From a virus (Duplodnaviria; Caudoviricetes), in the IMG/VR virus record IMGVR_UViG_3300045996_001423, positions 1 to 57,208 of that record: 57,208 nucleotides of DNA. One strand, written 5' to 3'. Position numbers and translations under genes: made by a program. Under the pieces are notes generated by a model. It saw only the letters and a program-made list of their open reading frames with translations, was not told the DNA's origin and made no database searches. Below are positions 11,677 through 40,964 of the stretch, piece after piece; position 1 is the first letter of the stretch; each line of letters starts with the position of its first letter.

Positions 11677-11879
11677 CCTACGTATTCAAGTGCAGTGACT
11701 GCGGTAAAGAGGTTAAGCACACTCCTGAGGAAGGTTACGAGGACATTTACGCCGTAGCTTATATTGCTGGGGCGCGGCATGAGCGTTTCGACCCGGACAA
11801 CCGGCGAGCGGACGGGTTTTGGTGTCTGACGGCGGGGGCGAAGTGCCTAGTGCTTCAAGGTCTGGAGGTGGATTACTAA
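11673..11879 (+). CDS. hypothetical protein
   Basis: GGAGGAG SD, ATGA overlap, CSDC. Confidence 0.55.
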   Translation: MTYVFKCSDCGKEVKHTPEEGYEDIYAVAYIAGARHERFDPDNRRADGFWCLTAGAKCLVLQGLEVDY

Positions 11880-13378
11880 TGAACCCGTTGTTGATGGCAG
11901 ATTTTTACAAACTTGGGCACAGGGCCTGCTACCCCCCGTCTACCACGCAGGTCTGGTCGAACTGGACGGCGCGAAAGTCTCGTGTCCCTGGAGTTGACCA
12001 GATTGTCTTCTTCGGACTGCGCTACTTCATTGAGAAGTATCTGTGCGAGGAGTTCGAATACAACTTCTTCCGCCGTCCAATTAAGGAAGTGGTAGACCAG
12101 TACCGGGAGGTAGTCAGCGCTACGCTTGGCGACCCGAACCCGTACACAAAGCACATCGAGCAGCTTCACGACTACGGCAGGAAGACTGGTGGCCTGCCTA
12201 TCCGGATCTACGCCCTGCCTGAGGGGTCTCAGGTTGATGTCGGCGTACCGGCGCTGGTTGTTACGAACACCAAGCCGTGGGCGTTCTGGCTACCCAACTA
12301 TCTCGAAACGATTCTGAGCAACATACTGTGGAAGCCGATCACGTCGGCCACCACAGCCAGAGAGTACCGGAAGATCTGCATGAAATACGCACGGCAGGCT
12401 GGCGAGACGGACTTCTCGTTCGTTGACTGGCAGTGCCACGACTTCTCGATGCGCGGTATGAGCGGGGTGGAAGACGCGGTCCTGTCAGGCATGGGCCATC
12501 TGCTGTCGTTCTCCGGTACGGATACGATCCCCGCTATCCTCGCGGCGCACAAGTATTACAACGCCCCGTACTCGGTGGGCGGCAGCGTAAACGCCACGGA
12601 GCATTCTGTAATGTCGGCAGGAGGTAAGGAGTCGGAACTGGAAACGTTCCGCCGCCTGATCGAGGACGTTCACCCGACCGGCGTGGTCAGCATCGTCAGT
12701 GACACCTGGGATCTCTGGAAGGTGTTGACGGAGTACGTGCCCGCTCTGCGTGACAAGATCCTGGCGCGAGATGGAAAAAGTGTGTTTAGGCCCGACAGCG
12801 GTGACCCGGTGAAGATTCTGTGCGGCGACAGTTCCAAGTTTATGGAGATCGAGCACGGGTATAAGTCCTCACACCACCCGGCGTTTTACGGAGTGCTTTG
12901 TCTACTCCAGCAACACCTTGGCGTGGAGTACCGGGACGGAAAACTGCCCCTGATCAAAAAGGCCGGTGCAATCTATGGCGACTCTATCACACTGGAGAGG
13001 GCAGACCAGATCCTCGACCTCACAGTGAACGAGTTGCGCATGTCGCCGTATAACGTGGTCCTCGGAATTGGCTCGTACACATACGAACTGGTGACGCGTG
13101 ACACCTACGGTCAGGCGATGAAGGCTACGGCGGTGCGCAACGGAGATGAGATCATTCCGATTTGGAAAGACCCAGTGACCGACGACGGAATGAAGAAGTC
13201 CCTGAAGGGCATCCCTGCAGTGTACGAGAACGAGATGAACAACGGATACTTCGTCGTTGATAACCAACCAGAAGAAGCCCTTGACAACTGCGCTTATTGT
13301 AAGGTGTACGAGAACGGGTTGCACTTAGTGAAGGACGACTTTGAAACGATTCAAAAGAGAGCGAGGGTAGGACTGTGA
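11879..13378 (+). CDS. nicotinamide phosphoribosyltransferase homolog (Namat-like)
   Basis: ADFYKLGH, HDFSMRG, ATEHSVMS, SIVSDTWD, RPDSGDP, IYGDSIT, KDPVTDDG.KKS.KG. Confidence 0.93.
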   Translation: MNPLLMADFYKLGHRACYPPSTTQVWSNWTARKSRVPGVDQIVFFGLRYFIEKYLCEEFEYNFFRRPIKEVVDQYREVVSATLGDPNPYTKHIEQLHDYGRKTGGLPIRIYALPEGSQVDVGVPALVVTNTKPWAFWLPNYLETILSNILWKPITSATTAREYRKICMKYARQAGETDFSFVDWQCHDFSMRGMSGVEDAVLSGMGHLLSFSGTDTIPAILAAHKYYNAPYSVGGSVNATEHSVMSAGGKESELETFRRLIEDVHPTGVVSIVSDTWDLWKVLTEYVPALRDKILARDGKSVFRPDSGDPVKILCGDSSKFMEIEHGYKSSHHPAFYGVLCLLQQHLGVEYRDGKLPLIKKAGAIYGDSITLERADQILDLTVNELRMSPYNVVLGIGSYTYELVTRDTYGQAMKATAVRNGDEIIPIWKDPVTDDGMKKSLKGIPAVYENEMNNGYFVVDNQPEEALDNCAYCKVYENGLHLVKDDFETIQKRARVGL

Positions 13379-24992: not shown

Positions 24993-25453
24993 GCGACAAC
25001 AAACAATACTACATATATCTGTGCGGCCCGATCACAGGCCTGTCCTACGAGGAATGCGTGGCGTACTACACGGCTGTTGGGGAACTGCTGCCATCGTGGT
25101 TAACTCCGATCAGCCCGATGAGAGGGAAGGGCTACCTAAAAGGCGAGGCAAACCTGACAGACAACTACAACGGAACCACCCTCAGTACAGGTCAGGCAAT
25201 TGTTGCCAGAGACTTCAACGACGTACGCCGCGCAGATGTCATCTTAGCAAACTTTATTGGGGCAAAGAGAGTTTCCATAGGCAGCGTCTTTGAGCTTGCA
25301 TGGGCTTACGAGATGCAGAAACCTGTTGTGCTCGCTATGGAGGATGGTAACGTACACGACCACGCCTTTGTACGCCAGGCCTGCGCCTTCCGAACCAAAA
25401 GCCTGGAAGAGGCTGTTGACGTAGCGAAACACGTTGTGAGTACAGGGCTGTGA
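24989..25453 (+). CDS. nucleoside 2-deoxyribosyltransferase-like protein
   Basis: IYLCGPI, RDFNDVRRADVIL, SIGSVFELAWA, KPVV. Confidence 0.85.
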   Translation: MSDNKQYYIYLCGPITGLSYEECVAYYTAVGELLPSWLTPISPMRGKGYLKGEANLTDNYNGTTLSTGQAIVARDFNDVRRADVILANFIGAKRVSIGSVFELAWAYEMQKPVVLAMEDGNVHDHAFVRQACAFRTKSLEEAVDVAKHVVSTGL

Positions 25454-27375
25454 GTAAAGAAGTTAAGGCAGAACTGCTGCTCGCCTCCCACAATTCTTGG
25501 ACGGGAGACACACTCTATAGCTGGAAGCTGACCTTCCCGAGGATAATACTTTCGGAAATTAACACGCATCGGATGGCTTGCCTTTCTGGAGACACTGAAC
25601 TGTTTTTCGACCATCCAAGTGGGCAGACTGGTTCAGGGTATCGACGGCTGTACACTATAACCGCCAAGAACTTTTACGAGAAATGGCACAACGGGTCAGC
25701 GCCCAGAAGAAACAAGCCACGCGGTGGGAAGTACAACATTGACAACGTTGACCCTAACCGCGAATACACGGCGAAAGAGCTGTCAGCAACTACTGGTGCC
25801 CGAAGAGAGAACCTAAACACGCTGGTGAAACAAGGGAAGCTCAAAGGTGAGCAAAGAGACTTCTCAGCTCGCAGAAGATTCGGCATAACCTACATCAAAG
25901 GCGTTGACTTCATAGAATACGTCACTGATCAAGTAGGTGTGAACAAACAGAGTGCTCGCGGTCGTCTGTCTCGAATGAGAATAAGACAGCTAAATGAGCA
26001 GACAACGGAGTACCAGAACAGCACGGTCAAGGATTGCTTTTACTCTGGAAAAAAGGAATGCTTTCTGGTGATGACAGACGCAGGGTCTTCTATTAAGGCA
26101 TCCGGCGACCATAGAGTGCTAACGGATTCTGGATGGAAAAGTATTTCGGAGCTAGTTCCTTTTACAGACAAACTAGCTGGGCGTTTTTGTTCCGAGGAAC
26201 CTCCTAGAAAGCAACCTAGAAAGGTCAACGGCGTTTGGAAATGCCAATGGAACCGGGGCGTGAAACCCGGTCTCCTAAAAGCTCAGGACGGAAAGTGCTA
26301 TTTCTGCCCTACTCCAGTGAACGAGGCGGACCATGTGCACCATAAGAAACCTGTCTGGACTCACCCCGATTTGATGTGTGATATTAGTAACTGTTGCGTC
26401 GTATGTCCCCCGTGCCATAAAGACCAGCACAAAGTTCAAGGCTGGCAAAAAGGTGTTCCACTACGAGTTCGCTGGGAAACCGTAACAGGTGTCATCAGTG
26501 CTGGGTTTGAGGACACGTACGACTTTGAAATATCCGGGGAATTCCCAAACTTTGTAGCGAACGGTCTTGTGGTACACAACAGCCGTAACACCTCGTCCAG
26601 CCGCGCCATACCGGGCAGGAAACTTCGCAAAGCTGTGCTGAACGATCCGTTTATTCCTTCACACATTGGTGAGTTGCAATCCGGTATGCAGGCGGGGGAT
26701 GAACTGTCAGGCTGGAAACGGTGGGCGGCGAAGAAACTGTGGTCTATGCCACGCTATGTTTGTGCGGCGTCGGCGTGGGGAATGGAGAAGCTGGGAGTTC
26801 ACAAGCAGGTATCAAACCGGCTAATAGAGCCGTGGATGTGGTGCGAGCAGATTTTCTCTGCCACTGAGGTGGAGAACTTCTTCTGGCTGCGTGATCACCG
26901 TATGGCCGAGCCACACTTTGCCTCCCTTGCCAATCAGATGCACGAGCAGGCCGACAAGGTAAAGTGGTTGGTAAATGCGAGAGGGCACGGGGAGTACTGG
27001 CGGCAGGAATTTGGGTGGAACGGAGGTGTGGTACAGAACCTCCTACCGGGCTACTGGCATCTCCCGTTCATTGACGACGAAGACGGTAACGAAACTGAAA
27101 CACTGAAGAAGGTGTCGGCGGCGAGATGCGCAAGGGTGAGCTACTTGCTCCCGGAGAACGGAAAGAAGTCTACAATCGAACGGGATGTTGAATTATTCAA
27201 CAGGCTGGCGGTGAGAGAAGAAGGAAACAACGACCCGAGGCATTTAAGTCCTCTTGAGCACGTAGCTTTGGCCGTTCACTATAAAGGATTTATTGGGAAT
27301 TTCAAGGGGTTCAAGCAGTTCCGAAAGGAAGTGCCGAACGAGGCTGGACCTAGTACTGCGGTTCTAGACCGTTAA
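25450..27375 (+). CDS. thyX: FAD-dependent thymidylate synthase (ThyX/Thy1) containing an intein
   Basis: PRIILSEINTHRMA|SRNTSSSRAIP after splicing; HKQVSNRLIEPW, NFFWLR, SAARCARVSY, HLSPLEH. Confidence 0.88.
   Translation: MSKEVKAELLLASHNSWTGDTLYSWKLTFPRIILSEINTHRMACLSGDTELFFDHPSGQTGSGYRRLYTITAKNFYEKWHNGSAPRRNKPRGGKYNIDNVDPNREYTAKELSATTGARRENLNTLVKQGKLKGEQRDFSARRRFGITYIKGVDFIEYVTDQVGVNKQSARGRLSRMRIRQLNEQTTEYQNSTVKDCFYSGKKECFLVMTDAGSSIKASGDHRVLTDSGWKSISELVPFTDKLAGRFCSEEPPRKQPRKVNGVWKCQWNRGVKPGLLKAQDGKCYFCPTPVNEADHVHHKKPVWTHPDLMCDISNCCVVCPPCHKDQHKVQGWQKGVPLRVRWETVTGVISAGFEDTYDFEISGEFPNFVANGLVVHNSRNTSSSRAIPGRKLRKAVLNDPFIPSHIGELQSGMQAGDELSGWKRWAAKKLWSMPRYVCAASAWGMEKLGVHKQVSNRLIEPWMWCEQIFSATEVENFFWLRDHRMAEPHFASLANQMHEQADKVKWLVNARGHGEYWRQEFGWNGGVVQNLLPGYWHLPFIDDEDGNETETLKKVSAARCARVSYLLPENGKKSTIERDVELFNRLAVREEGNNDPRHLSPLEHVALAVHYKGFIGNFKGFKQFRKEVPNEAGPSTAVLDR
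25579..26580 (+). mobile_element. intein (334 aa) with an HNH endonuclease
   Basis: Starts CLSGDT; block B SIKASGDHRVL; ends TYDFEI...NFVANGLVVHN/S; HNH CYFC..DHVHH..N.C.VCPPCH. Confidence 0.92.
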
Positions 27376-29229: not shown

Positions 29230-30217
29230 TTACGCTGCCTCTTGTGTGTCAAGCGATTCCTGCTGAGCGAACAAGTGTGACAAATGCGTAAGCAGCCTGC
29301 AGCGGTACAACTCCATTTCCTCCGCACATAAGCTGTTCGTTACGATATTCGTCCACATCGCAGGCCACCCCATCAGCCAGCAGACGAACGCCGGATTTAA
29401 CCGCTGGCGCGAGGTCCGGTCTTTCGGTGAGAGTTTCTGCCCACTTGGAAAGTTCTCCGGGTCCGTAAGTATAGACGGGAAGCCCTGTTCTACCTGCCAG
29501 TCCAGCATGTCCATGCGGCTCTTGCCGTCCTTCCTTGTAACCGCTGGACCACTGCCTTTCCAGATCCTTGCGGCTGGTGTAGACCACGCATTCTTCTTGA
29601 TCCACTCTTCCACTTGGTCCTGCAACTTGATTCGGGGGTTCTCCACCCCCGGTCTCTCCAGTGGCTGCGTTCCTCCGGTCGGGGTTCTCGGCGTACGCCA
29701 AAATGAAGAGTCTGTATCTCTCATGGTTCGCGCCCGTTTCGTTCGCTGTGAACAGGCCCGCCCTAACGCCGTAACCCATTGATCGAAGCTCATCCCGTAC
29801 TTCTCGAAATCCGAGTCGAAGATGTCCCCGAACGTTTTCGAAGAAACAGATCTGCGGCTTGATCTCCTTGACTCTTTCAGCAATGTGGGGCCAGACGTGG
29901 CGGGGGTCTGCGGTGCCGAGTTGTTTACCCGCAACTGAAAACGGCTGGCAGGGGTAACCTCCAGTGACTGAATCCACGAAGCCACACCATGGCTTACCGT
30001 CGAAGGTTTTAACGTCAGACCAGACAGGTGCTTTATCCAAGGCCGCGCTTTCCATCCCTCGCCACGAGGAGGGCCGCAGCGTAGGCTTCCCGTTCGACGT
30101 TACACACAGTTCGTACCCTCCCCACTCCGAGGTACTCGCAGCCGAGTCGGAATCCCTCATCGAGCATTCCTGTTCCTGTGCAGAAGCTAATGTTATTGAT
30201 GGTAGGTAAAGCCACAC
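29230..30217 (-). CDS. overlapping-frame MTase beta polypeptide (motif IX), broken by the same extra G; intact part 29230..29985
   Basis: WRTP/WSTP repeats and RLNPAFVCWLMGWP; frame open from GTG 30217 if one G is removed. Confidence 0.7.
29249..30215 (-). pseudogene. C5 cytosine DNA methyltransferase (alpha frame), interrupted by one extra G at 30056-30058
   Basis: Motif I (ISFCTGTGMLDEG) is in one frame; motifs IV GYPCQPFS, VI FFENV, VIII HERYR and X GNGVV are in another; deleting one G gives LLVAR-MESAALD. Confidence 0.8.
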
Positions 30218-30673
30218 TCAGTTTTTTGTCTCCTTTGGTACCCAACGGACTTCCACTCCACCCTTTTGTAAAATGTCTGCTGCCATTGAAAAGTCGTACC
30301 GGGGGTCGTTCTTGCGTTCTTCATACCGATCCTGGTCGCAGTAGAGAACGGCAATCCCAGCCTCGCTGATACACGACGCACAGTTAGCACATGGATACCA
30401 GTTCAGGTACATTACCGCGCCTTCCGTGGGATAACCTCTTCGGGCAGCTTTGCAGAGAACACGCTTTTCTGCGTGGTTAATCCAGTTATACTTGTCTGGG
30501 CGGCTGGTGTTTTCCTTTGTGGGGTCCACACCAGGAGGCAGCATGTTTGCGGCCATCACCACACTTTGGGTGCCGTTATCTACAGCGCACACGGTTTGGG
30601 TGTCCGGGTCGTCGCTATCGTCTTCTCTCAGGAGGAGGGCCTCGTATAGAGTTTGGTTAAACGGATGGTTCAT
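30218..30673 (-). CDS. dCMP deaminase
   Basis: SDDPDTQT, NHAEK, WYPCANCASCI..AGI. Confidence 0.88.
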   Translation of the reverse strand: MNHPFNQTLYEALLLREDDSDDPDTQTVCAVDNGTQSVVMAANMLPPGVDPTKENTSRPDKYNWINHAEKRVLCKAARRGYPTEGAVMYLNWYPCANCASCISEAGIAVLYCDQDRYEERKNDPRYDFSMAADILQKGGVEVRWVPKETKN

Positions 30674-35147: not shown

Positions 35148-38100
35148 CTATGTGACGTTCGTGATAATTCCGGCGTTCACAGTAATAGTACCTGTACTAA
35201 CGCCATCATTCTTGGTGTAGCCAATAAAACCGGTCCAACCAGACGACCCGTTGACGGAGACGTTGGCCCCTGTTCCGCTTAGAAGAATGCCAGATCCGGC
35301 AACTTGAACTGTTATGTTACCAGAATCGTCTCGGACAGACACTACACCTCCGAATGGATTTGCGTCAAAACGAAGTCTTTCAGATCCTCCACTCGTATAC
35401 AACACCATTGAGGCGTCAGACGAAGAACTAGCGATCAAACTGAAGTTTGTACCAGAAGACGTAGTCGGGTGCATACTAATCGCCCCAGGTCTCACTATCA
35501 CCATGTTGGTGTTACTAGTGGTGTAAACTTGCAGTCCTGCAACAAACCCATGAGCGAACTCATTTGTAAGTTTGGTAATAACACTATTCAACGATAGAGT
35601 GAACGTTCCTCCAACCATCTCTAGTGTTGAGCCGTTGCACTCCAACTTTGGGCTGGAACTGAGAATGCCGGGAGCAATCTTGATGTTCCTAAAATACGCC
35701 CCCTGGTACGGAATGCCTTGGTCCTCTCCAACCATGCACAGCAGGGTTCCAAGCAAGTCTCTCACTACAAACCTTACTGGTCTACCACTTCCCGGACCCA
35801 CAAGGATCTCGTTGGTGGACAACTGAGTCGTCCCAATCGCCCCGGCCACGACATTACCAGCGATGATCGTATTAGCGTTCAGAATGTCGATGGCGTCCAC
35901 GGCAGCGGTCCAGCCGCTACCCGTACTGCGATACAACTTGTACGGCGTAGAGCTTGTCAGTACCACTGGGGTACCGGTAGGGTAAGCCGCGTTTGGCATC
36001 GCGGGAAGCGACGACACAAGGTGTGTAATCGACAGCCCTGCTGCGTGGGCCGCTGCCGGGATATTGGCTATCTTATTACCGTCGAGCGCTCCTGACGGAG
36101 GCGGTATGGTCAACGAGAAACCGGGGGTTCCGGTCGGCCACAACGGAGGAACCGTTGTTACCTCGCCGTCCCTGTTACGGGAGTTGGTGTCCTGCGCTAC
36201 AGCCCTGAACTCCCATTCATACTCTGTCTCCGGAAGATGCTCAATTATCGCCGCTCCCGGCAACCCGCCCTGATTCGGGTACCCGAGCAGGTACCAGTTC
36301 CCATCCTCCCTCTTCGCCCAGAACTCAATAAAAGCCCAAGTTGGGTCGTTGGGAGCAGTGAACGTCGGTGTGAGGAGCAGTGCCTCCTTCCCGTAGTAGT
36401 CCGATCCCATGTAGGTGTACGCGACCGAGAACCCGGTCACGTCGCTGACAGGCACAGACACGTGAGGCGGTTGTATGTCAAGGCTTACTTCCGGGGTTGT
36501 GCCCTCGACATAAGTGTTAGGATTACCATCCGCGTCCACCGATATCCAGCGAAGCTTTACAGTGATCGGCGCTGAAGGGAGGTGCTCAATATAGATGATC
36601 CTCTCTGCCACAGAACTGGTGTCTGTGATCGCTCTCCACCCAAGCTCCGGGTAGTCCGACCGCCAATGCTCTACGAAGTACCCGCCGAAGTCCAGACTAC
36701 CTTCCGGGAGGGTGCACGTTGCCGTGATCTCGATCACCTTCCTGCCCGTAGCAGGAGATATGTCGTATTCCCACGTCGCAGCTTCGTTGGTGACAAGATC
36801 GGCGTTCTCCTGCCCACCTGCACCAGACTGCCTGACAACCGAGAACGTATACGATCCGGTTACCCCGTGAACAACGGAGTTTACCTTGCCGTCTTCCCCG
36901 CGAGGCCGTACGTAGACGGTGTAGTCTGTCTCTACCTCCGGGACTTTCCACTCCCCGTCCAGAGAATACTGAGTACGGGAGACAGGCTCCCCAGTGACCA
37001 GTGCATACCTGTCGTCTTCAGGGGTGCCGGGGTCGTTCGGAATATCGGGAGCGAACCGGATGATATCCCAGTAAGCGATGTCCTTGAACCGGGGATCTTC
37101 CGTTGGGTGTTCCCACGAAAGCTTCCACCTCCACCACTGCTCCGCGCCGCGACGGTTGACATACTCCATCGTTCCGGTAACGTTGCGTGCGTTGGGGAAC
37201 CACTCCGACCCGTTAGCCCCGGCATCGTGAGGCGTAACAGTCACCTTCACACTCGGGGAAGGATTGTTAGAGTCTGCTCTGTTCAGGGGGTTGCGAACAT
37301 ACTTCGAACCGCTAACGACAATCACTCGCCAGTCTTCTGACTGTTTCGGTTCCGGGTAAGCGACCTTTACTACAGGCTCTTCAGGGTTCCACCGCTGCTC
37401 GAACTGGAGTTCGGGCTTGGACAGAGACACCATCTTTGACGCCACGTTTGAGTCATCGTCAATGTAGAACGCCGCCTCTGTTTCCGACAGGCCGGTCTTC
37501 CCTGCCCCGATTTCAACCGCGTCGTCCGGTGCCTGAAGGAACACAAACAAACGGTCGAAGTTGGCGTCACCTTCCGGTGGTGTAACCGGAACAGTGATGA
37601 CTGCGTGCCACACACCAGACCGCTCTTCCCAATCGAGGTGAGCCGCGCCAAGCGTAACGTCGCCGGGAGCTACAAGCTCTTCCGCGATTTCAGTTGTGTC
37701 GAGAGGGAACTCAACCCTGACCGCCGCAGAGTATCGCGATGTCGGGCCGTACGCTTCCCCTTTGACCTTTGTGTAGATCCTCTCTTCAGTGGTTCCTACT
37801 TCAAGGGATACTCTGGTGATTGACAGAGCAACCGAACTGGAGGAGGTAAGACCGAGCGACGACGGTGTTGCGCCGCTCACTCCCAAAGAAACTCTCTGCC
37901 ACTGCCCGCAAAGCTTGATTACTTTTGAGGCAGACCCGAACGTGAGAGTAAGCGACACTCCCGCTGTTCCCTTCACACTCAGAGACAAACAGCGGGAAAC
38001 TCCTGCCGGGGTTGGAACCGTTATAGACTTACTAGTTGCGACCGTTACGGTGTCAATCTCAGACTGCTTACCGTCAGGGTTGAGGCCGATTGCCCTCGTC

Positions 38101-40964
38101 ACCCCGGTCACTCCAGCAGACGCCAGATTTTCGGAGTGCAGAAAGTAGTTGCCGAAGTTTACCTGACGAACGAAGAACACACGACCACGCTCGTTGCGCG
38201 GTACACTAAACGTTCTCGACGTAGAGCGAACTACAAGGTTCTTTCCGTCGTCACAACCCCACCCCTCGTCTGTGTAACGAACTTCGAAGCACTTCCCGGA
38301 GCCAAGATCCTGACCAGCATCTACGTGAATCTCACTCAGATCCCAACCAACGATTAGGGGGTGTACTACATCGGGGGCGAACGCTGTACCAGCGCTGACC
38401 CCGTACACGTTAGTCAGTTCGGTAACCGACGCGCTCCTTTGAAACAGCGACGACTGCGGACTATAGAACTGAGTAACCTGTTTACTCAGGTAGTCAGGTT
38501 TACCGAACTCAATAACGTGGTTGAATAGGTTCTGAGAGGCGCTCAGCCAGGTAGTTCTGACCGAAGTGATTTCCTCTGCCACAAGATCTGCAAACTCGGC
38601 GTTGGTAATCTTCAGAACGGCACCGGCTTTTGGTTCCGCAGTGAAGTACGTCGAGAACTGCTCGTAGGTTCCCTCGTAGTGGGCGACCGAACTCTCCGCA
38701 ACGACAGCCGCAGCCGCCAGTTCACACTCTGCTGACGTGCGCGGGCGGGGTGACAACTCGGTGCGAAACGACGACCGAACGCCGTTATCTCCCCACGATT
38801 CAGACTCTGTGTTTATACTGTCCTGGCTTCTCACCCTGCCCACAGCGGGACCGGCGCTGCGATACGACACCCGGAAGAACGTTCCCTTTGGGACGATAGA
38901 GGATGTCTGATTGAGGGTGTCTTTGAAGAACACAAGCTGATGCTGGCCGGGATTGAACTGCCCGGTTCCAAACATCGTGCTCTTCGTCTCCGCTCCGTTG
39001 GTTCCCCCAACCACAGTGGCCACCGAGGTGAAGCCGTCAAGCGCGTCCAGTTCATTCGGACCAACGACCCTAGACTGCCACTCTGAAGTGACGCTGATAT
39101 CGTCAATCCACACCGCACCCGCTGTACCTGTATAACTCAGAACAAACTGAAGGTCGTCGGGTATGGAGGCAAGCCCCGTCGTAAGGGTTCCGGTGACGAC
39201 TGTGTAGCCTGAACTCGTTAGGTCAGCCGTGTCAACGTAAAGCCCGGTCTCTGGAACTCCGGTGCCGAAGATGATTATCTTGGCCGTACCGGACGCTCCG
39301 ACCGACTTCATCATGCGGGCCGTGACGACGTACGCTTTGTTGGCGTCCAGTTTGCCTTTGGCATTCTGGTACAGGTACGTGTTCTGTCCCTCGACGTACT
39401 GAAGCTTTACAGCCTTACCTGAATAAGAGAAGAACTCCTCTTCGTACGCTTCGTTCCGGCCATTCCAGCCGTCCGGGTCACCATTGGACCAGTTGTCAAG
39501 GCTTAAGTTCGAAAGCGCCGACTGTGTAGCAAGCTCCAGTGATACAGCCAGTGGGACGCTGATAGTAATGCCGGTAACAGTGGCATGGAGATTTGTAGAA
39601 GAAATAGGTGCATACTGTGCAAACAACTCGCTCGACGTGACAGTCCCCTCATCAACCCAAAACCACTGGTTGGTAAGGCTCCCGTTCGACGGATCAATCT
39701 CGGAGATGACCGTAGACCAGACAACGCTGTCAGACTCTGCGGTTCCCTCGTACTCCTGCCGAACGCCTGCCGAGTCCAGATAACTGTAGCTCTGCGGCAT
39801 TCGATTGGTCTTGCTGAACTCTGCAACAGTCCGAATGACGTACCTTTTGGCAAGGTCGATGGTTACGCTGTTCGAACTGAGAGAGCCGCCAACTACCGGC
39901 TTCACCGTGGTTCCGTTAACGCTAATGCCGTATATACATCCGGACAGACCGGACGACGGGGCGGATTTCCACAGACCACCCACCACACCCTGCCCACTGA
40001 TAAAGTCAAACTCTCCGTGGGTAAGGCGAAGTCTTCCTTCGAGGGGAATTGCGTTTGTAGATAGGACGTAGGCTCCGTACGTACCGGTGCCACCTGCGCA
40101 ATTGAGATAACCGTCCGACACCGTGAAGTATCCGGGGGCGGGGTTCTGCAGAGTCCACACACTGGAGTTCAGCCCTCCAGTGAACATCTCGTCAATCAGC
40201 ACCGATGAATCGACGCCGAAGACAGAGGACATCAACGGAAAAGCGGAGTCCAGCCCAGTGCCCATGAAGTATTCGTGCACGTAGTTCTGGGGTTCAATCT
40301 CACCCAAAACAATTGCGTCGTTAACGATGGGTTCCGGAGACGGTCGTAGCGTCAGTCTGGAGGGGGTAAAGTGGGTATTGTCCGCGTCGATAATGACAGG
40401 GCTGGCGTCCTGAGGTACGTAGTAGAGCTTCTTGTCGTGTCCATAGAAACGGAAGTTTGAAGCTTTGCTGAACTCCTGAATTACCTCCGCAAACTTCTTG
40501 TTCGGGTCTATGGAGTACTGGGCTACGACAGGGCCATCCTGTATATTGGATACGTCGAACACACCCGGCTCAAGAAGATCAACAAGAGTTTTGATGATGG
40601 CACCCTGAGTGCGGTTGAGGAACGGGGGAACAAACCCGAGAGGTTTTAAGGAGAGGGATACTTCGTCACTCGCTGCCTGATATTTCTGCCCAAACACCGG
40701 CTGCTTTGTGGTACTGTCCTTGCCAATGTAGAACAGTTCCGGGTCGCTGACTACGTACCCCGTGAACCACTTGGGGTACTGTTCGGTATCAATTACGATA
40801 TACGAACCACGCCTAAGAGCGACGTAGTCGCTGTCAATTTTGGCCAGGGAAAAATCAAGAGTAACGGACTCGTTCTTTCGGTCTGTCTTGACCATCTCCC
40901 CGTGGACATAACGGATGTAGTCAGAGTTGGCACCAACTTGCGTGGTTGTAAACGTGTTCGGCAT
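35148..40964 (-). CDS. large tail tip / host-specificity protein (1938 aa)
   Basis: Follows tape measure; N-terminal hub-like region, CBM-like and Ig/FN3-like repeats, fibre-like C-terminus (IVAGAIGT, GIITNVT). Confidence 0.8.
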   Translation of the reverse strand: MPNTFTTTQVGANSDYIRYVHGEMVKTDRKNESVTLDFSLAKIDSDYVALRRGSYIVIDTEQYPKWFTGYVVSDPELFYIGKDSTTKQPVFGQKYQAASDEVSLSLKPLGFVPPFLNRTQGAIIKTLVDLLEPGVFDVSNIQDGPVVAQYSIDPNKKFAEVIQEFSKASNFRFYGHDKKLYYVPQDASPVIIDADNTHFTPSRLTLRPSPEPIVNDAIVLGEIEPQNYVHEYFMGTGLDSAFPLMSSVFGVDSSVLIDEMFTGGLNSSVWTLQNPAPGYFTVSDGYLNCAGGTGTYGAYVLSTNAIPLEGRLRLTHGEFDFISGQGVVGGLWKSAPSSGLSGCIYGISVNGTTVKPVVGGSLSSNSVTIDLAKRYVIRTVAEFSKTNRMPQSYSYLDSAGVRQEYEGTAESDSVVWSTVISEIDPSNGSLTNQWFWVDEGTVTSSELFAQYAPISSTNLHATVTGITISVPLAVSLELATQSALSNLSLDNWSNGDPDGWNGRNEAYEEEFFSYSGKAVKLQYVEGQNTYLYQNAKGKLDANKAYVVTARMMKSVGASGTAKIIIFGTGVPETGLYVDTADLTSSGYTVVTGTLTTGLASIPDDLQFVLSYTGTAGAVWIDDISVTSEWQSRVVGPNELDALDGFTSVATVVGGTNGAETKSTMFGTGQFNPGQHQLVFFKDTLNQTSSIVPKGTFFRVSYRSAGPAVGRVRSQDSINTESESWGDNGVRSSFRTELSPRPRTSAECELAAAAVVAESSVAHYEGTYEQFSTYFTAEPKAGAVLKITNAEFADLVAEEITSVRTTWLSASQNLFNHVIEFGKPDYLSKQVTQFYSPQSSLFQRSASVTELTNVYGVSAGTAFAPDVVHPLIVGWDLSEIHVDAGQDLGSGKCFEVRYTDEGWGCDDGKNLVVRSTSRTFSVPRNERGRVFFVRQVNFGNYFLHSENLASAGVTGVTRAIGLNPDGKQSEIDTVTVATSKSITVPTPAGVSRCLSLSVKGTAGVSLTLTFGSASKVIKLCGQWQRVSLGVSGATPSSLGLTSSSSVALSITRVSLEVGTTEERIYTKVKGEAYGPTSRYSAAVRVEFPLDTTEIAEELVAPGDVTLGAAHLDWEERSGVWHAVITVPVTPPEGDANFDRLFVFLQAPDDAVEIGAGKTGLSETEAAFYIDDDSNVASKMVSLSKPELQFEQRWNPEEPVVKVAYPEPKQSEDWRVIVVSGSKYVRNPLNRADSNNPSPSVKVTVTPHDAGANGSEWFPNARNVTGTMEYVNRRGAEQWWRWKLSWEHPTEDPRFKDIAYWDIIRFAPDIPNDPGTPEDDRYALVTGEPVSRTQYSLDGEWKVPEVETDYTVYVRPRGEDGKVNSVVHGVTGSYTFSVVRQSGAGGQENADLVTNEAATWEYDISPATGRKVIEITATCTLPEGSLDFGGYFVEHWRSDYPELGWRAITDTSSVAERIIYIEHLPSAPITVKLRWISVDADGNPNTYVEGTTPEVSLDIQPPHVSVPVSDVTGFSVAYTYMGSDYYGKEALLLTPTFTAPNDPTWAFIEFWAKREDGNWYLLGYPNQGGLPGAAIIEHLPETEYEWEFRAVAQDTNSRNRDGEVTTVPPLWPTGTPGFSLTIPPPSGALDGNKIANIPAAAHAAGLSITHLVSSLPAMPNAAYPTGTPVVLTSSTPYKLYRSTGSGWTAAVDAIDILNANTIIAGNVVAGAIGTTQLSTNEILVGPGSGRPVRFVVRDLLGTLLCMVGEDQGIPYQGAYFRNIKIAPGILSSSPKLECNGSTLEMVGGTFTLSLNSVITKLTNEFAHGFVAGLQVYTTSNTNMVIVRPGAISMHPTTSSGTNFSLIASSSSDASMVLYTSGGSERLRFDANPFGGVVSVRDDSGNITVQVAGSGILLSGTGANVSVNGSSGWTGFIGYTKNDGVSTGTITVNAGIITNVT

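Follow-up and report, generated by a model that had tools for sequence, protein, structure and literature searches.

The record analysed is a linear virus contig of 57,208 bp with a completeness estimate of 62%, referred to here over its whole length as the window, and it carries phage structural genes (portal, tape measure) together with a nucleotide-metabolism block. Its source is described as a soil phage, and two soil-metagenome runs contain parts of the stretch as contigs. Inside the nucleotide-metabolism block lies a methyltransferase locus (positions 30217-29230, minus strand), flanked upstream by a dCMP deaminase gene (30709-30218, minus strand) and downstream by an HNH endonuclease gene (about 29198-28566, minus strand).

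The 5′ end of this locus holds two GTG codons that have one G (30215) in common. One of them (30215-30217, minus strand) opens a frame beginning MWLYLPS..., designated beta, and the other (30213-30215, minus strand) opens a frame beginning (M/V)ALPTINNISFCTGTG..., designated alpha. The Shine-Dalgarno-like hexamer AAGGAG was read from the sequence at 30230-30235 (minus strand), with a spacing of 12 nt to the beta GTG and of 14 nt to the alpha GTG downstream of it. The TGA stop codon of the dCMP deaminase gene (30218-30220, minus strand) shares the frame of the beta start and stands immediately next to GTG 30217. The original prediction for this locus set out from two GTG starts 2 nt apart behind one AAGGAG, and these elements are present at 30217, 30215 and 30235-30230.

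Two open frames and an extra G

Within the locus, a GGG run at 30056-30058 (minus strand) holds one G more than fits the family architecture and breaks both alpha and beta, as judged by stop counts, hhalign comparison and a metagenomic contig. In the unaltered sequence upstream of the GGG, beta and alpha contain 0 stops each and the third frame contains 4, and downstream of it alpha and beta again contain 0 stops each and the third frame 13. With one G fewer, alpha extends over 321 aa and beta over 328 aa, which bears out the earlier claim that removing one G from the run opens both frames.

As written, the frame of GTG 30215 (ALPTINNISFCTGTGMLDEG..., with motif I) ends at a stop at 30035-30033, and the frame of GTG 30217 runs to 29249 as an ORF of 322 aa, reading PVWSD...GGYPCQ...ENV...ERYRLF...GNGVV from ~30055; this ORF is a beta-N/alpha-C chimera without motif I. 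A further frame (~30100-29230) reads ...RLSGLT...WRTP...WSTP...TRKDGKSRMDMLDW...RLNPAFVCWLMGWPAMWT. By hhalign, the chimera, which begins at GTG 30217, aligns to the beta-family profile A3 over residues 1-60 (E 1.2e-11) and to the alpha-family profile, from its column 51 onwards, over residues 53-321 (E 7e-59), and the 60-aa ORF from 30215 matches columns 1-53 of the alpha profile A2 (E 2.6e-22). The boundaries of these matches therefore place the discontinuity at GGG 30056-30058, and the comparison with the two profiles confirmed that the product as written is a chimera devoid of the SAM-binding motif, as had been foreseen.

A contig of run X1 (record 6; 234 nt, window 29849-30083) has 1 base fewer at 30056 and is otherwise identical to the window, at a depth of 2.7, with 27 bases past the gap and possibly from the same sample as the record. 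The base missing from it is the exact change that opens both frames. Contigs of runs X1 and X2 cover the stretch partly, leaving for example 30096-30179 uncovered. Because the X1 contig lacks the base and the rest of the gene is undecayed, we take the extra G to be, most probably, either an assembly error or a minor variant, the gene itself being intact, and favour this reading over a fixed inactivating mutation by roughly 2:1. A real insertion of 1 nt, which would make the gene a pseudogene in the assembled lineage, accords with the GGG of the record as given and with comparable single frame switches, seen by eye, inside the gene in other metagenomic loci (L029, L045, L067 and L068). Chimeric ORFs joining an alpha N-part to a beta C-part also occur among database proteins (P0024, P0031 and P0080, 3 among the 120 listed), and since both frames are open, an indel gives a long chimeric ORF with no early stop and may persist unnoticed. 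Against a pseudogene stand the X1 contig, identical over 234 nt and without the extra base, the undecayed state of the gene, with 0 stops in either frame and every family-invariant motif residue present, and the intact neighbouring long ORFs of 1938 and 1710 aa; we regard this explanation as unlikely.

Slipped-strand switches rely on far longer runs than 2-3 bases, and the tract here, GGG only, is not the long homopolymer or short-repeat tract of a phase-variable methyltransferase. The other loci (among the 53 testable ones described below) read through the GGG-equivalent position in one frame. That the G run serves as a one-base on/off switch (phase variation) of the methyltransferase is thus extremely improbable, even though two forms seem to exist (record versus X1 contig) and phase-variable methyltransferases with homopolymer tracts are known (PMC3711429). 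Of the three options originally offered for the extra G, the X1 contig favours an assembly error (or strain variant), an inactivating mutation keeps the lesser share stated above, and the on/off switch did not stand.

Motif content of the alpha and beta frames

Read in the alpha frame, the locus codes for a C5 cytosine methyltransferase that has motifs I, IV, VI, VIII and X. Its N-part (30059-30215, minus strand) contains motif I, FCTGTGM (30185-30165), and EREAY (30095-30081). Its C-part (29249-30055, minus strand; stop at 29251-29249) contains motif IV, PCQ (29953-29945), motif VI, ENV (29839-29831), motif VIII, ERYRLF (29722-29705), then, after an unconstrained linker, YGPGELSKW (29467-29441), and finally motif X, GNGVV (29320-29306), all on the minus strand and read from the sequence; as written, motif I is in another frame than motifs IV-X. 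The window ORF 30217-29249 matches PF00145 with 79.4 bits (cut-off 22) at profile positions 49-164, and the same profile is matched by 28/28 related alphas. The motif columns are invariant in the alpha profile A2, and across the 28 alphas there is no variation in the catalytic PCQ and ENV or in the residues of motifs I and X. PHROGs places the alpha frame in phrog_29583, phrog_363 and phrog_116.

Motif IX and a target-recognition domain are not found in the same chain as these motifs: the alpha of L003, the closest full-length relative (304 aa) and the member examined in detail, covers only positions 2-171 of 324 of PF00145. The structural model of this alpha has a mean pLDDT of 74 and a pTM of 0.73, with pLDDT ~90 at residues 1-180 and 281-304 and a poorly modelled linker; the linker (~100 aa), between motif VIII and the motif X end, combines low model confidence with no amino-acid constraint. 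The best PDB match of the model is M.HhaI (Foldseek E 1e-13, 176 columns, 28% identity). The alpha core is accordingly like M.HhaI and M.HaeIII (PF00145) in that it is predicted to fold as the large domain of M.HhaI, and unlike them in that it matches about half of the Pfam profile; the small domain and the putative motif IX would come from the other frame. An alpha of ~321 aa with motifs I, IV, VI, VIII and X and without motif IX is what had been anticipated, and the coordinates above and the truncated PF00145 match agree with it.

The first part of the beta frame (30059-30217, minus strand; MWLYLPSITLASAQEQ...KPTLRPSSWR), assigned by hhalign, is the beginning of a leader that overlaps alpha motif I. 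The remainder (29230-30054, minus strand; phrog_1008, E 2.6e-19) consists of the rest of the leader, from WKARPWIKHLSGLTLKPSTV..., followed by WRTP (29700-29689), WSTP (29586-29575), TRKDGKSRMDMLDW (29538-29497), the motif IX-like RLNPAFVCWLMGWPAMWT (29403-29350), and a tail ending in the stop at 29232-29230, all located on the minus strand by inspection. The first WxTP of beta overlaps alpha motif VIII on the DNA. These elements and the phrog_1008 match correspond to the beta of ~328 aa with WxTP repeats and a motif IX-like segment that was predicted.

Of the 536 candidates from a word-indexed search with the 251-aa beta ORF, 154 were relatives at E<=1e-3, and most of these are named 'hypothetical' and have no Pfam domain. 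A family profile was built from 14 relatives and searched against a library of 1.84 billion proteins, yielding 35,688 cluster representatives at E<=1e-3, 20,272 at <=1e-10 and 4,179 at <=1e-30. Full-length members start with MWLY(V/I)PS and share WKR..W..RLSGLT..PST, ASL..PASR, several WxTP repeats and RLNPAFVCWLMGWPxWWTN. In PHROGs the beta family is phrog_1008, 'DNA methyltransferase', and GenBank has beta versions of 170-211 aa annotated alone (e.g. P0039). No family was found for beta in Pfam and NCBIfam, PF00145 was matched by 0/28 betas even at E 10, and comparison with PDB sequences gave chance matches only (MS2 coat protein, E 0.012). The beta segment RLNPxFxxWLMGxPxxWT presumably corresponds to the methyltransferase motif IX pattern, which it resembles; because none of the 28 betas matches PF00145, its putative identity as motif IX rests on this likeness and on the complex model described below. 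The WxTP-repeat region is probably responsible for target recognition.

Modelled alone, beta gives a poor structure (mean pLDDT 53, pTM 0.21), with residues 31-80 reaching pLDDT 67-78. The complex was modelled from the L003 alpha and residues 160-308 of its beta in three runs with 3 controls, and ipSAE values of 0.88, 0.89 and 0.88 were obtained, compared with 0.00 for the best control; the mark used is reached by 116/157 solved complexes and 2/215 mismatched pairs, a calibration that is rough here, where our own alignments were used. The partner pLDDT is at least 59 and the runs agree on at least 46% of contacts. [quoted passage not shown] Co-folding, which had been proposed as a check, therefore gave a predicted docking of the WxTP/motif IX part on alpha in this relative (ipSAE 0.88), and the model supports alpha-beta binding. 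The high score may also reflect likeness to single-chain C5 methyltransferases, since structures of those are solved.

Conservation of both frames and alternating selection

Loci of relatives were fetched from viral contigs (80 loci; 238/369 matched stretches were relatives) and from genomes (18 loci; 18/35), and of 99 loci examined 53 were testable. The 46 set aside comprised 11 without the strict motif IX regex, 1 running off the locus, 4 duplicates and 30 failing the strict alpha-motif regexes, of which 11 are cut by the locus end and several others overlap over >1 kb. The beta frame is stop-free from motif I to the end in 50/53 testable loci, which are kin (27-64% amino-acid identity to the reference) and hence count as non-independent trials, and the third frame has 5-21 stops. 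Two of the 3 exceptions (L028 and L041) go back to an upstream regex match, and the third (L058) has one stop in the leader. Examination of homologs for stop-free frames had been proposed beforehand as a check, and the frequent beta stops that would have spoken against dual coding are absent from the testable loci.

Synonymous shuffling was used to estimate how often such openness arises from composition. Alpha-synonymous shuffles put on average 1.3-5.7 stops into the beta frame of a locus and left it stop-free in <=4.5% of cases for 51/53 loci (10% for L095 and 20.5% for L011). Beta-synonymous shuffles put 5.1-14.7 stops into alpha, which stayed stop-free in <=0.5% of cases for 53/53 loci. 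In the N-half only (46 loci), 0 beta-frame stops were observed vs 97.5 expected. In neighbouring genes, taken as a control, the +1 frame was open in 0/58 ORFs of >=250 aa (median 9.7 stops per kb). The conserved openness is far beyond composition, and the synonymous shuffles and the neighbour ORFs rule out that high G+C opened the frames.

The starts are conserved as well. Among 46 de-duplicated loci the beta start codon is ATG in 36 and GTG in 10, and an alpha-frame GTG lies exactly 2 nt after it in 21/46, the geometry of the window. The alpha-frame codon at +5 from the beta start is GTG in 11, ATG in 6 and TTG in 4 of these loci, bringing the loci with a GTG, ATG or TTG alpha start at +2 or +5 to 42/46; the remaining 4 have CTG at +5. 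M-(x)-W stands at the head of the beta ORF, a few nt from the alpha start, in 51/53 testable loci, and the alpha and beta stops are 4-50 nt apart in most loci. Complete overlap of the two subunits, as proposed in the original prediction, is in line with beta being open in 50/53 loci, with the M-(x)-W start in 51/53 and with the +2 GTG in 21/46. In 21/46 related loci, as in the window (TGA, then GTG-TGG), a stop codon stands immediately before the beta start. Because of this start and stop geometry, initiation of alpha and beta is probably shared, in one region directly after the stop of the upstream gene, and may be coupled to upstream termination; termination-reinitiation at TGA 30220-30218 / GTG 30217 is a possible form of such coupling.

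The relative looked at first was gp46 of Acidovorax phage Alfacinha1, annotated as a 377-aa cytosine methyltransferase, whose CDS corresponds to beta. Alpha has no annotation there: its frame begins 2 nt downstream of the beta ATG, stays open throughout and carries motifs I, IV, VI, VIII and X. For Burkholderia phage phi1026b the annotation covers alpha alone.

To identify the frame under selection, nucleotides were threaded onto the protein alignments of 47 alpha/beta pairs and variability was scored by codon position. Over the first 8 codons (MWLYIPSN) the most variable position is the beta wobble, indicating selection on beta. Over motifs I-VIII it is the alpha wobble, which is the second position of beta codons, and alpha is the selected frame. 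The G..AW(I/M)ASL stretch is again most variable at the beta wobble (beta selected), as is the region from the first WPTP through the repeats (beta selected). PLFAPGP..RW is most variable at the alpha wobble (alpha selected), motif IX, where all three positions are low (amino-acid identity 0.76-0.85), at the beta wobble (beta selected), and VDESR...GNGVVP to the end at the alpha wobble (alpha selected). The selected frame alternates at least four times along the gene in these 47 pairs. The beta N-half is open, yet it is constrained in amino acids only at the first 8 codons and one short stretch. Because constraint is absent over most of the leader, we infer its translation only from the lack of stops and the conserved start.

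A two-subunit reading, its rivals and its relatives

We interpret the alpha/beta locus as encoding a two-subunit C5 cytosine DNA methyltransferase in one DNA stretch, with two frames used over its whole length, and assign this reading a probability of about 0.8. Translation from GTG 30215 would give alpha, with the AdoMet-binding and catalytic motifs I-VIII, a ~100-aa linker, a short conserved segment and motif X. Translation from GTG 30217 would give beta, with a stop-free leader of ~170 aa dictated by alpha, the WxTP region, motif IX and a short tail. Both chains would be made at these proposed starts, in the same region directly after the upstream stop codon, and would bind each other, the WxTP/motif IX part of beta completing the alpha fold on assembly, so that both would be needed.

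The same selected segments could also be joined in one chain by programmed frameshifting, from alpha by +1 into beta after motif VIII and by -1 back for motif X. Once joined, the segments would line up canonically as motifs I-VIII, the variable region, motif IX and motif X, motif IX standing at the usual distance from GNGVV, and the alpha-N/beta-C chimeric ORFs P0024, P0031 and P0080 (3 among 120 listed) would fit. A frameshifted chain, however, needs part of each frame, whereas both are open throughout in 50/53 loci and the beta N-half has 0 stops vs 97.5 expected. On the DNA, motif VIII and the first WxTP overlap, conservation extends over the start codon and the first 8 codons of beta, and selection switches at least four times, not twice, with PLFAPGP..RW alpha-selected between beta-selected stretches. 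No slippery heptamer was seen by reading at the junctions in the window. The locus also differs from a programmed frameshift gene, in which the second frame is open only past a slippery site, with one or two transitions. At least four selection switches together with open unselected halves therefore argue for two full-length products and not for one frameshifted chain, which we consider very improbable.

A closer rival keeps the two-subunit enzyme and supposes that functional beta is short, made from an internal start before the WxTP region, the leader being open for another reason; for example, ribosomes might have to arrive in frame from the shared start, the leader afterwards being degraded or cleaved. 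This would suit a leader whose second codon position is the most variable, the L058 leader stop followed by a possible TTG start, the phage K1G beta beginning 88 nt inside alpha, and the 170-211-aa GenBank versions annotated alone. In M.EcoHK31I, moreover, beta tolerates N-terminal loss and internal Met codons are suspected as starts (PMC2836561). An internal start, however, gives no reason to purge upstream stops, of which there are none in 50/53 loci; the start codon, MWLY(I/V)PS and G..AW(I/M)ASL show beta-type conservation, and beta model residues 31-80 reach pLDDT 67-78. A short functional beta is hence improbable, although a better candidate than frameshifting, and full-length alpha and beta from the two adjacent starts remain our preferred reading.

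Split C5 methyltransferases are known. M.AquI is naturally split into two subunits, which are encoded by adjacent genes and are not fully overlapping, unlike the locus here. The nearest precedent, M.EcoHK31I, is a heterodimeric C5 methyltransferase of E. coli HK31 recognising YGGCCR. [quoted passage not shown] The plasmid names pET3a-M38 and pET3a-C23 in the same text hint at subunits of ~38 and 23 kDa. PMC2836561 bears out the precedent named in the original prediction, a beta in the other frame inside alpha and with motif IX. Compared by description, the locus here is like M.EcoHK31I in that the alpha gene, read in a further frame, encodes a second polypeptide. It is unlike M.EcoHK31I in that the beta start precedes the alpha start by 2 nt, with no more than tens of nt between the ends of the two, and in that the variable WxTP region is beta-selected, target recognition there being assigned to alpha. 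The comparison supports an M.EcoHK31I-like system whose second ORF is co-extensive, offset by 2 nt and bears the WxTP region, and which is conserved in a very large phage/prophage family.

A nested form is annotated in the Kagunavirus E. coli phages K1G, K1H and K1ind1-3, whose GenBank entries list a 'putative C-specific methylase' with a nested 'putative Mte8-like protein'; among the phage records matched, 11/37 have two features at the match. In K1G, ORF31 (825 nt) contains ORF30 (693 nt) in a different frame. Both WPTP and RLNPAHSRWLMGYP occur in the nested protein, whose PHROGs match is phrog_1008 (E 1.3e-55); for the outer protein it is phrog_363. K1G is therefore like the window in having two overlapping CDSs in different frames, here both annotated, with the nested protein a relative of beta. 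It is unlike the window in that its alpha is of another subfamily, with an N-terminus of the NYYNEWD type, and its beta starts 88 nt inside alpha, with stops in the beta frame ahead of that point. Because of this late start and the leader stop of L058, full overlap is not obligatory in every relative. PMC5582158 merely names the 'Mte8-like protein', and no paper interpreting the K1G methylase/Mte8-like pair was found. The literature search, in a limited library, returned M.EcoHK31I and general overlapping-gene papers, and none describing dual coding in this phage family.

The finding bears on annotation, where gene callers choose one frame (beta in Alfacinha1) and single-base indels yield plausible chimeric ORFs, of which this record, P0024, P0031 and P0080 are examples. 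It further bears on phage methylome work, in which a recoded clone of 'the methyltransferase ORF' would silently destroy the second subunit. On balance we lean towards the view that the C5 methyltransferases of phages and prophages include a very large class, numbering tens of thousands of sequence clusters, that is obligately encoded by two co-extensive same-strand ORFs (~1-1.6 kb) with starts a few nt apart in one initiation region, neither chain being a complete enzyme and half of each being a stop-free 'passenger' constrained only to let the ribosome reach the functional part. If this is true, standard annotation calls one of two genes, and often the wrong one, and few conserved cases of same-strand dual coding in prokaryotic viruses would be as long or as widespread. 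Provided that both chains are made, the family would be a widespread natural case of two proteins from one stretch over at least 1 kb, and its clean alternation of selection would make it a good model for overlapping-gene evolution and for translation from close starts.

Frame switches, stops and annotation among homologous loci

In the homologous metagenomic loci L029, L045, L067 and L068, the dual-frame methyltransferase gene contains one frame switch each, resulting in long chimeric ORFs as in the window copy; these switches are either assembly errors or real mutations. A different departure was found in the short relative L058 (1420-2400), which carries one stop codon within the beta leader and retains a 140-aa beta ORF, with a candidate TTG start, ahead of the WPTP/motif IX part. 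The layout of L058 is therefore closer to that of M.EcoHK31I, the heterodimeric methyltransferase whose beta subunit is nested inside the alpha gene.

Loci from Burkholderia phage phi1026b and phages related to it (L030, L031, L032; L102:905-3029) lack a beta-frame stop where the methyltransferase gene ends. There the beta frame continues in frame into a ParB-like gene, so that 706-741 aa are open without interruption, which may represent a natural beta-ParB fusion. The label 'chromosome partitioning protein' is given to the motif IX stretch in some GenBank records. At gp46 of Acidovorax phage Alfacinha1 (L001:1551-2684), the GenBank CDS annotated as 'cytosine-specific methyltransferase' is the beta frame, and the alpha frame, which bears all the catalytic motifs, is unannotated.

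Other genes in the window

The 641-aa ORF at 25450-27375 (+) matches thymidylate synthase only at residues 376-635; residues 276-332 resemble an HNH endonuclease, and no assignment covers the N-terminal region. This ORF may be a fusion or contain an inserted homing element. The 1938-aa ORF at 35148-40964 (-), adjoining a 1710-aa tape-measure-like ORF, had no match among PHROGs. The gene at 11819-13378 (+) was assigned to nicotinamide phosphoribosyl transferase (phrog_448, E 6e-160).

Nucleotide conservation of the motif IX core

In both soil metagenome runs, certain contigs matched only the 35-nt motif IX core (29367-29401), and their sequences depart from the window on either side. These core-only contigs presumably belong to further relatives inhabiting those soils, and they show how strong nucleotide-level conservation is in this doubly constrained stretch.
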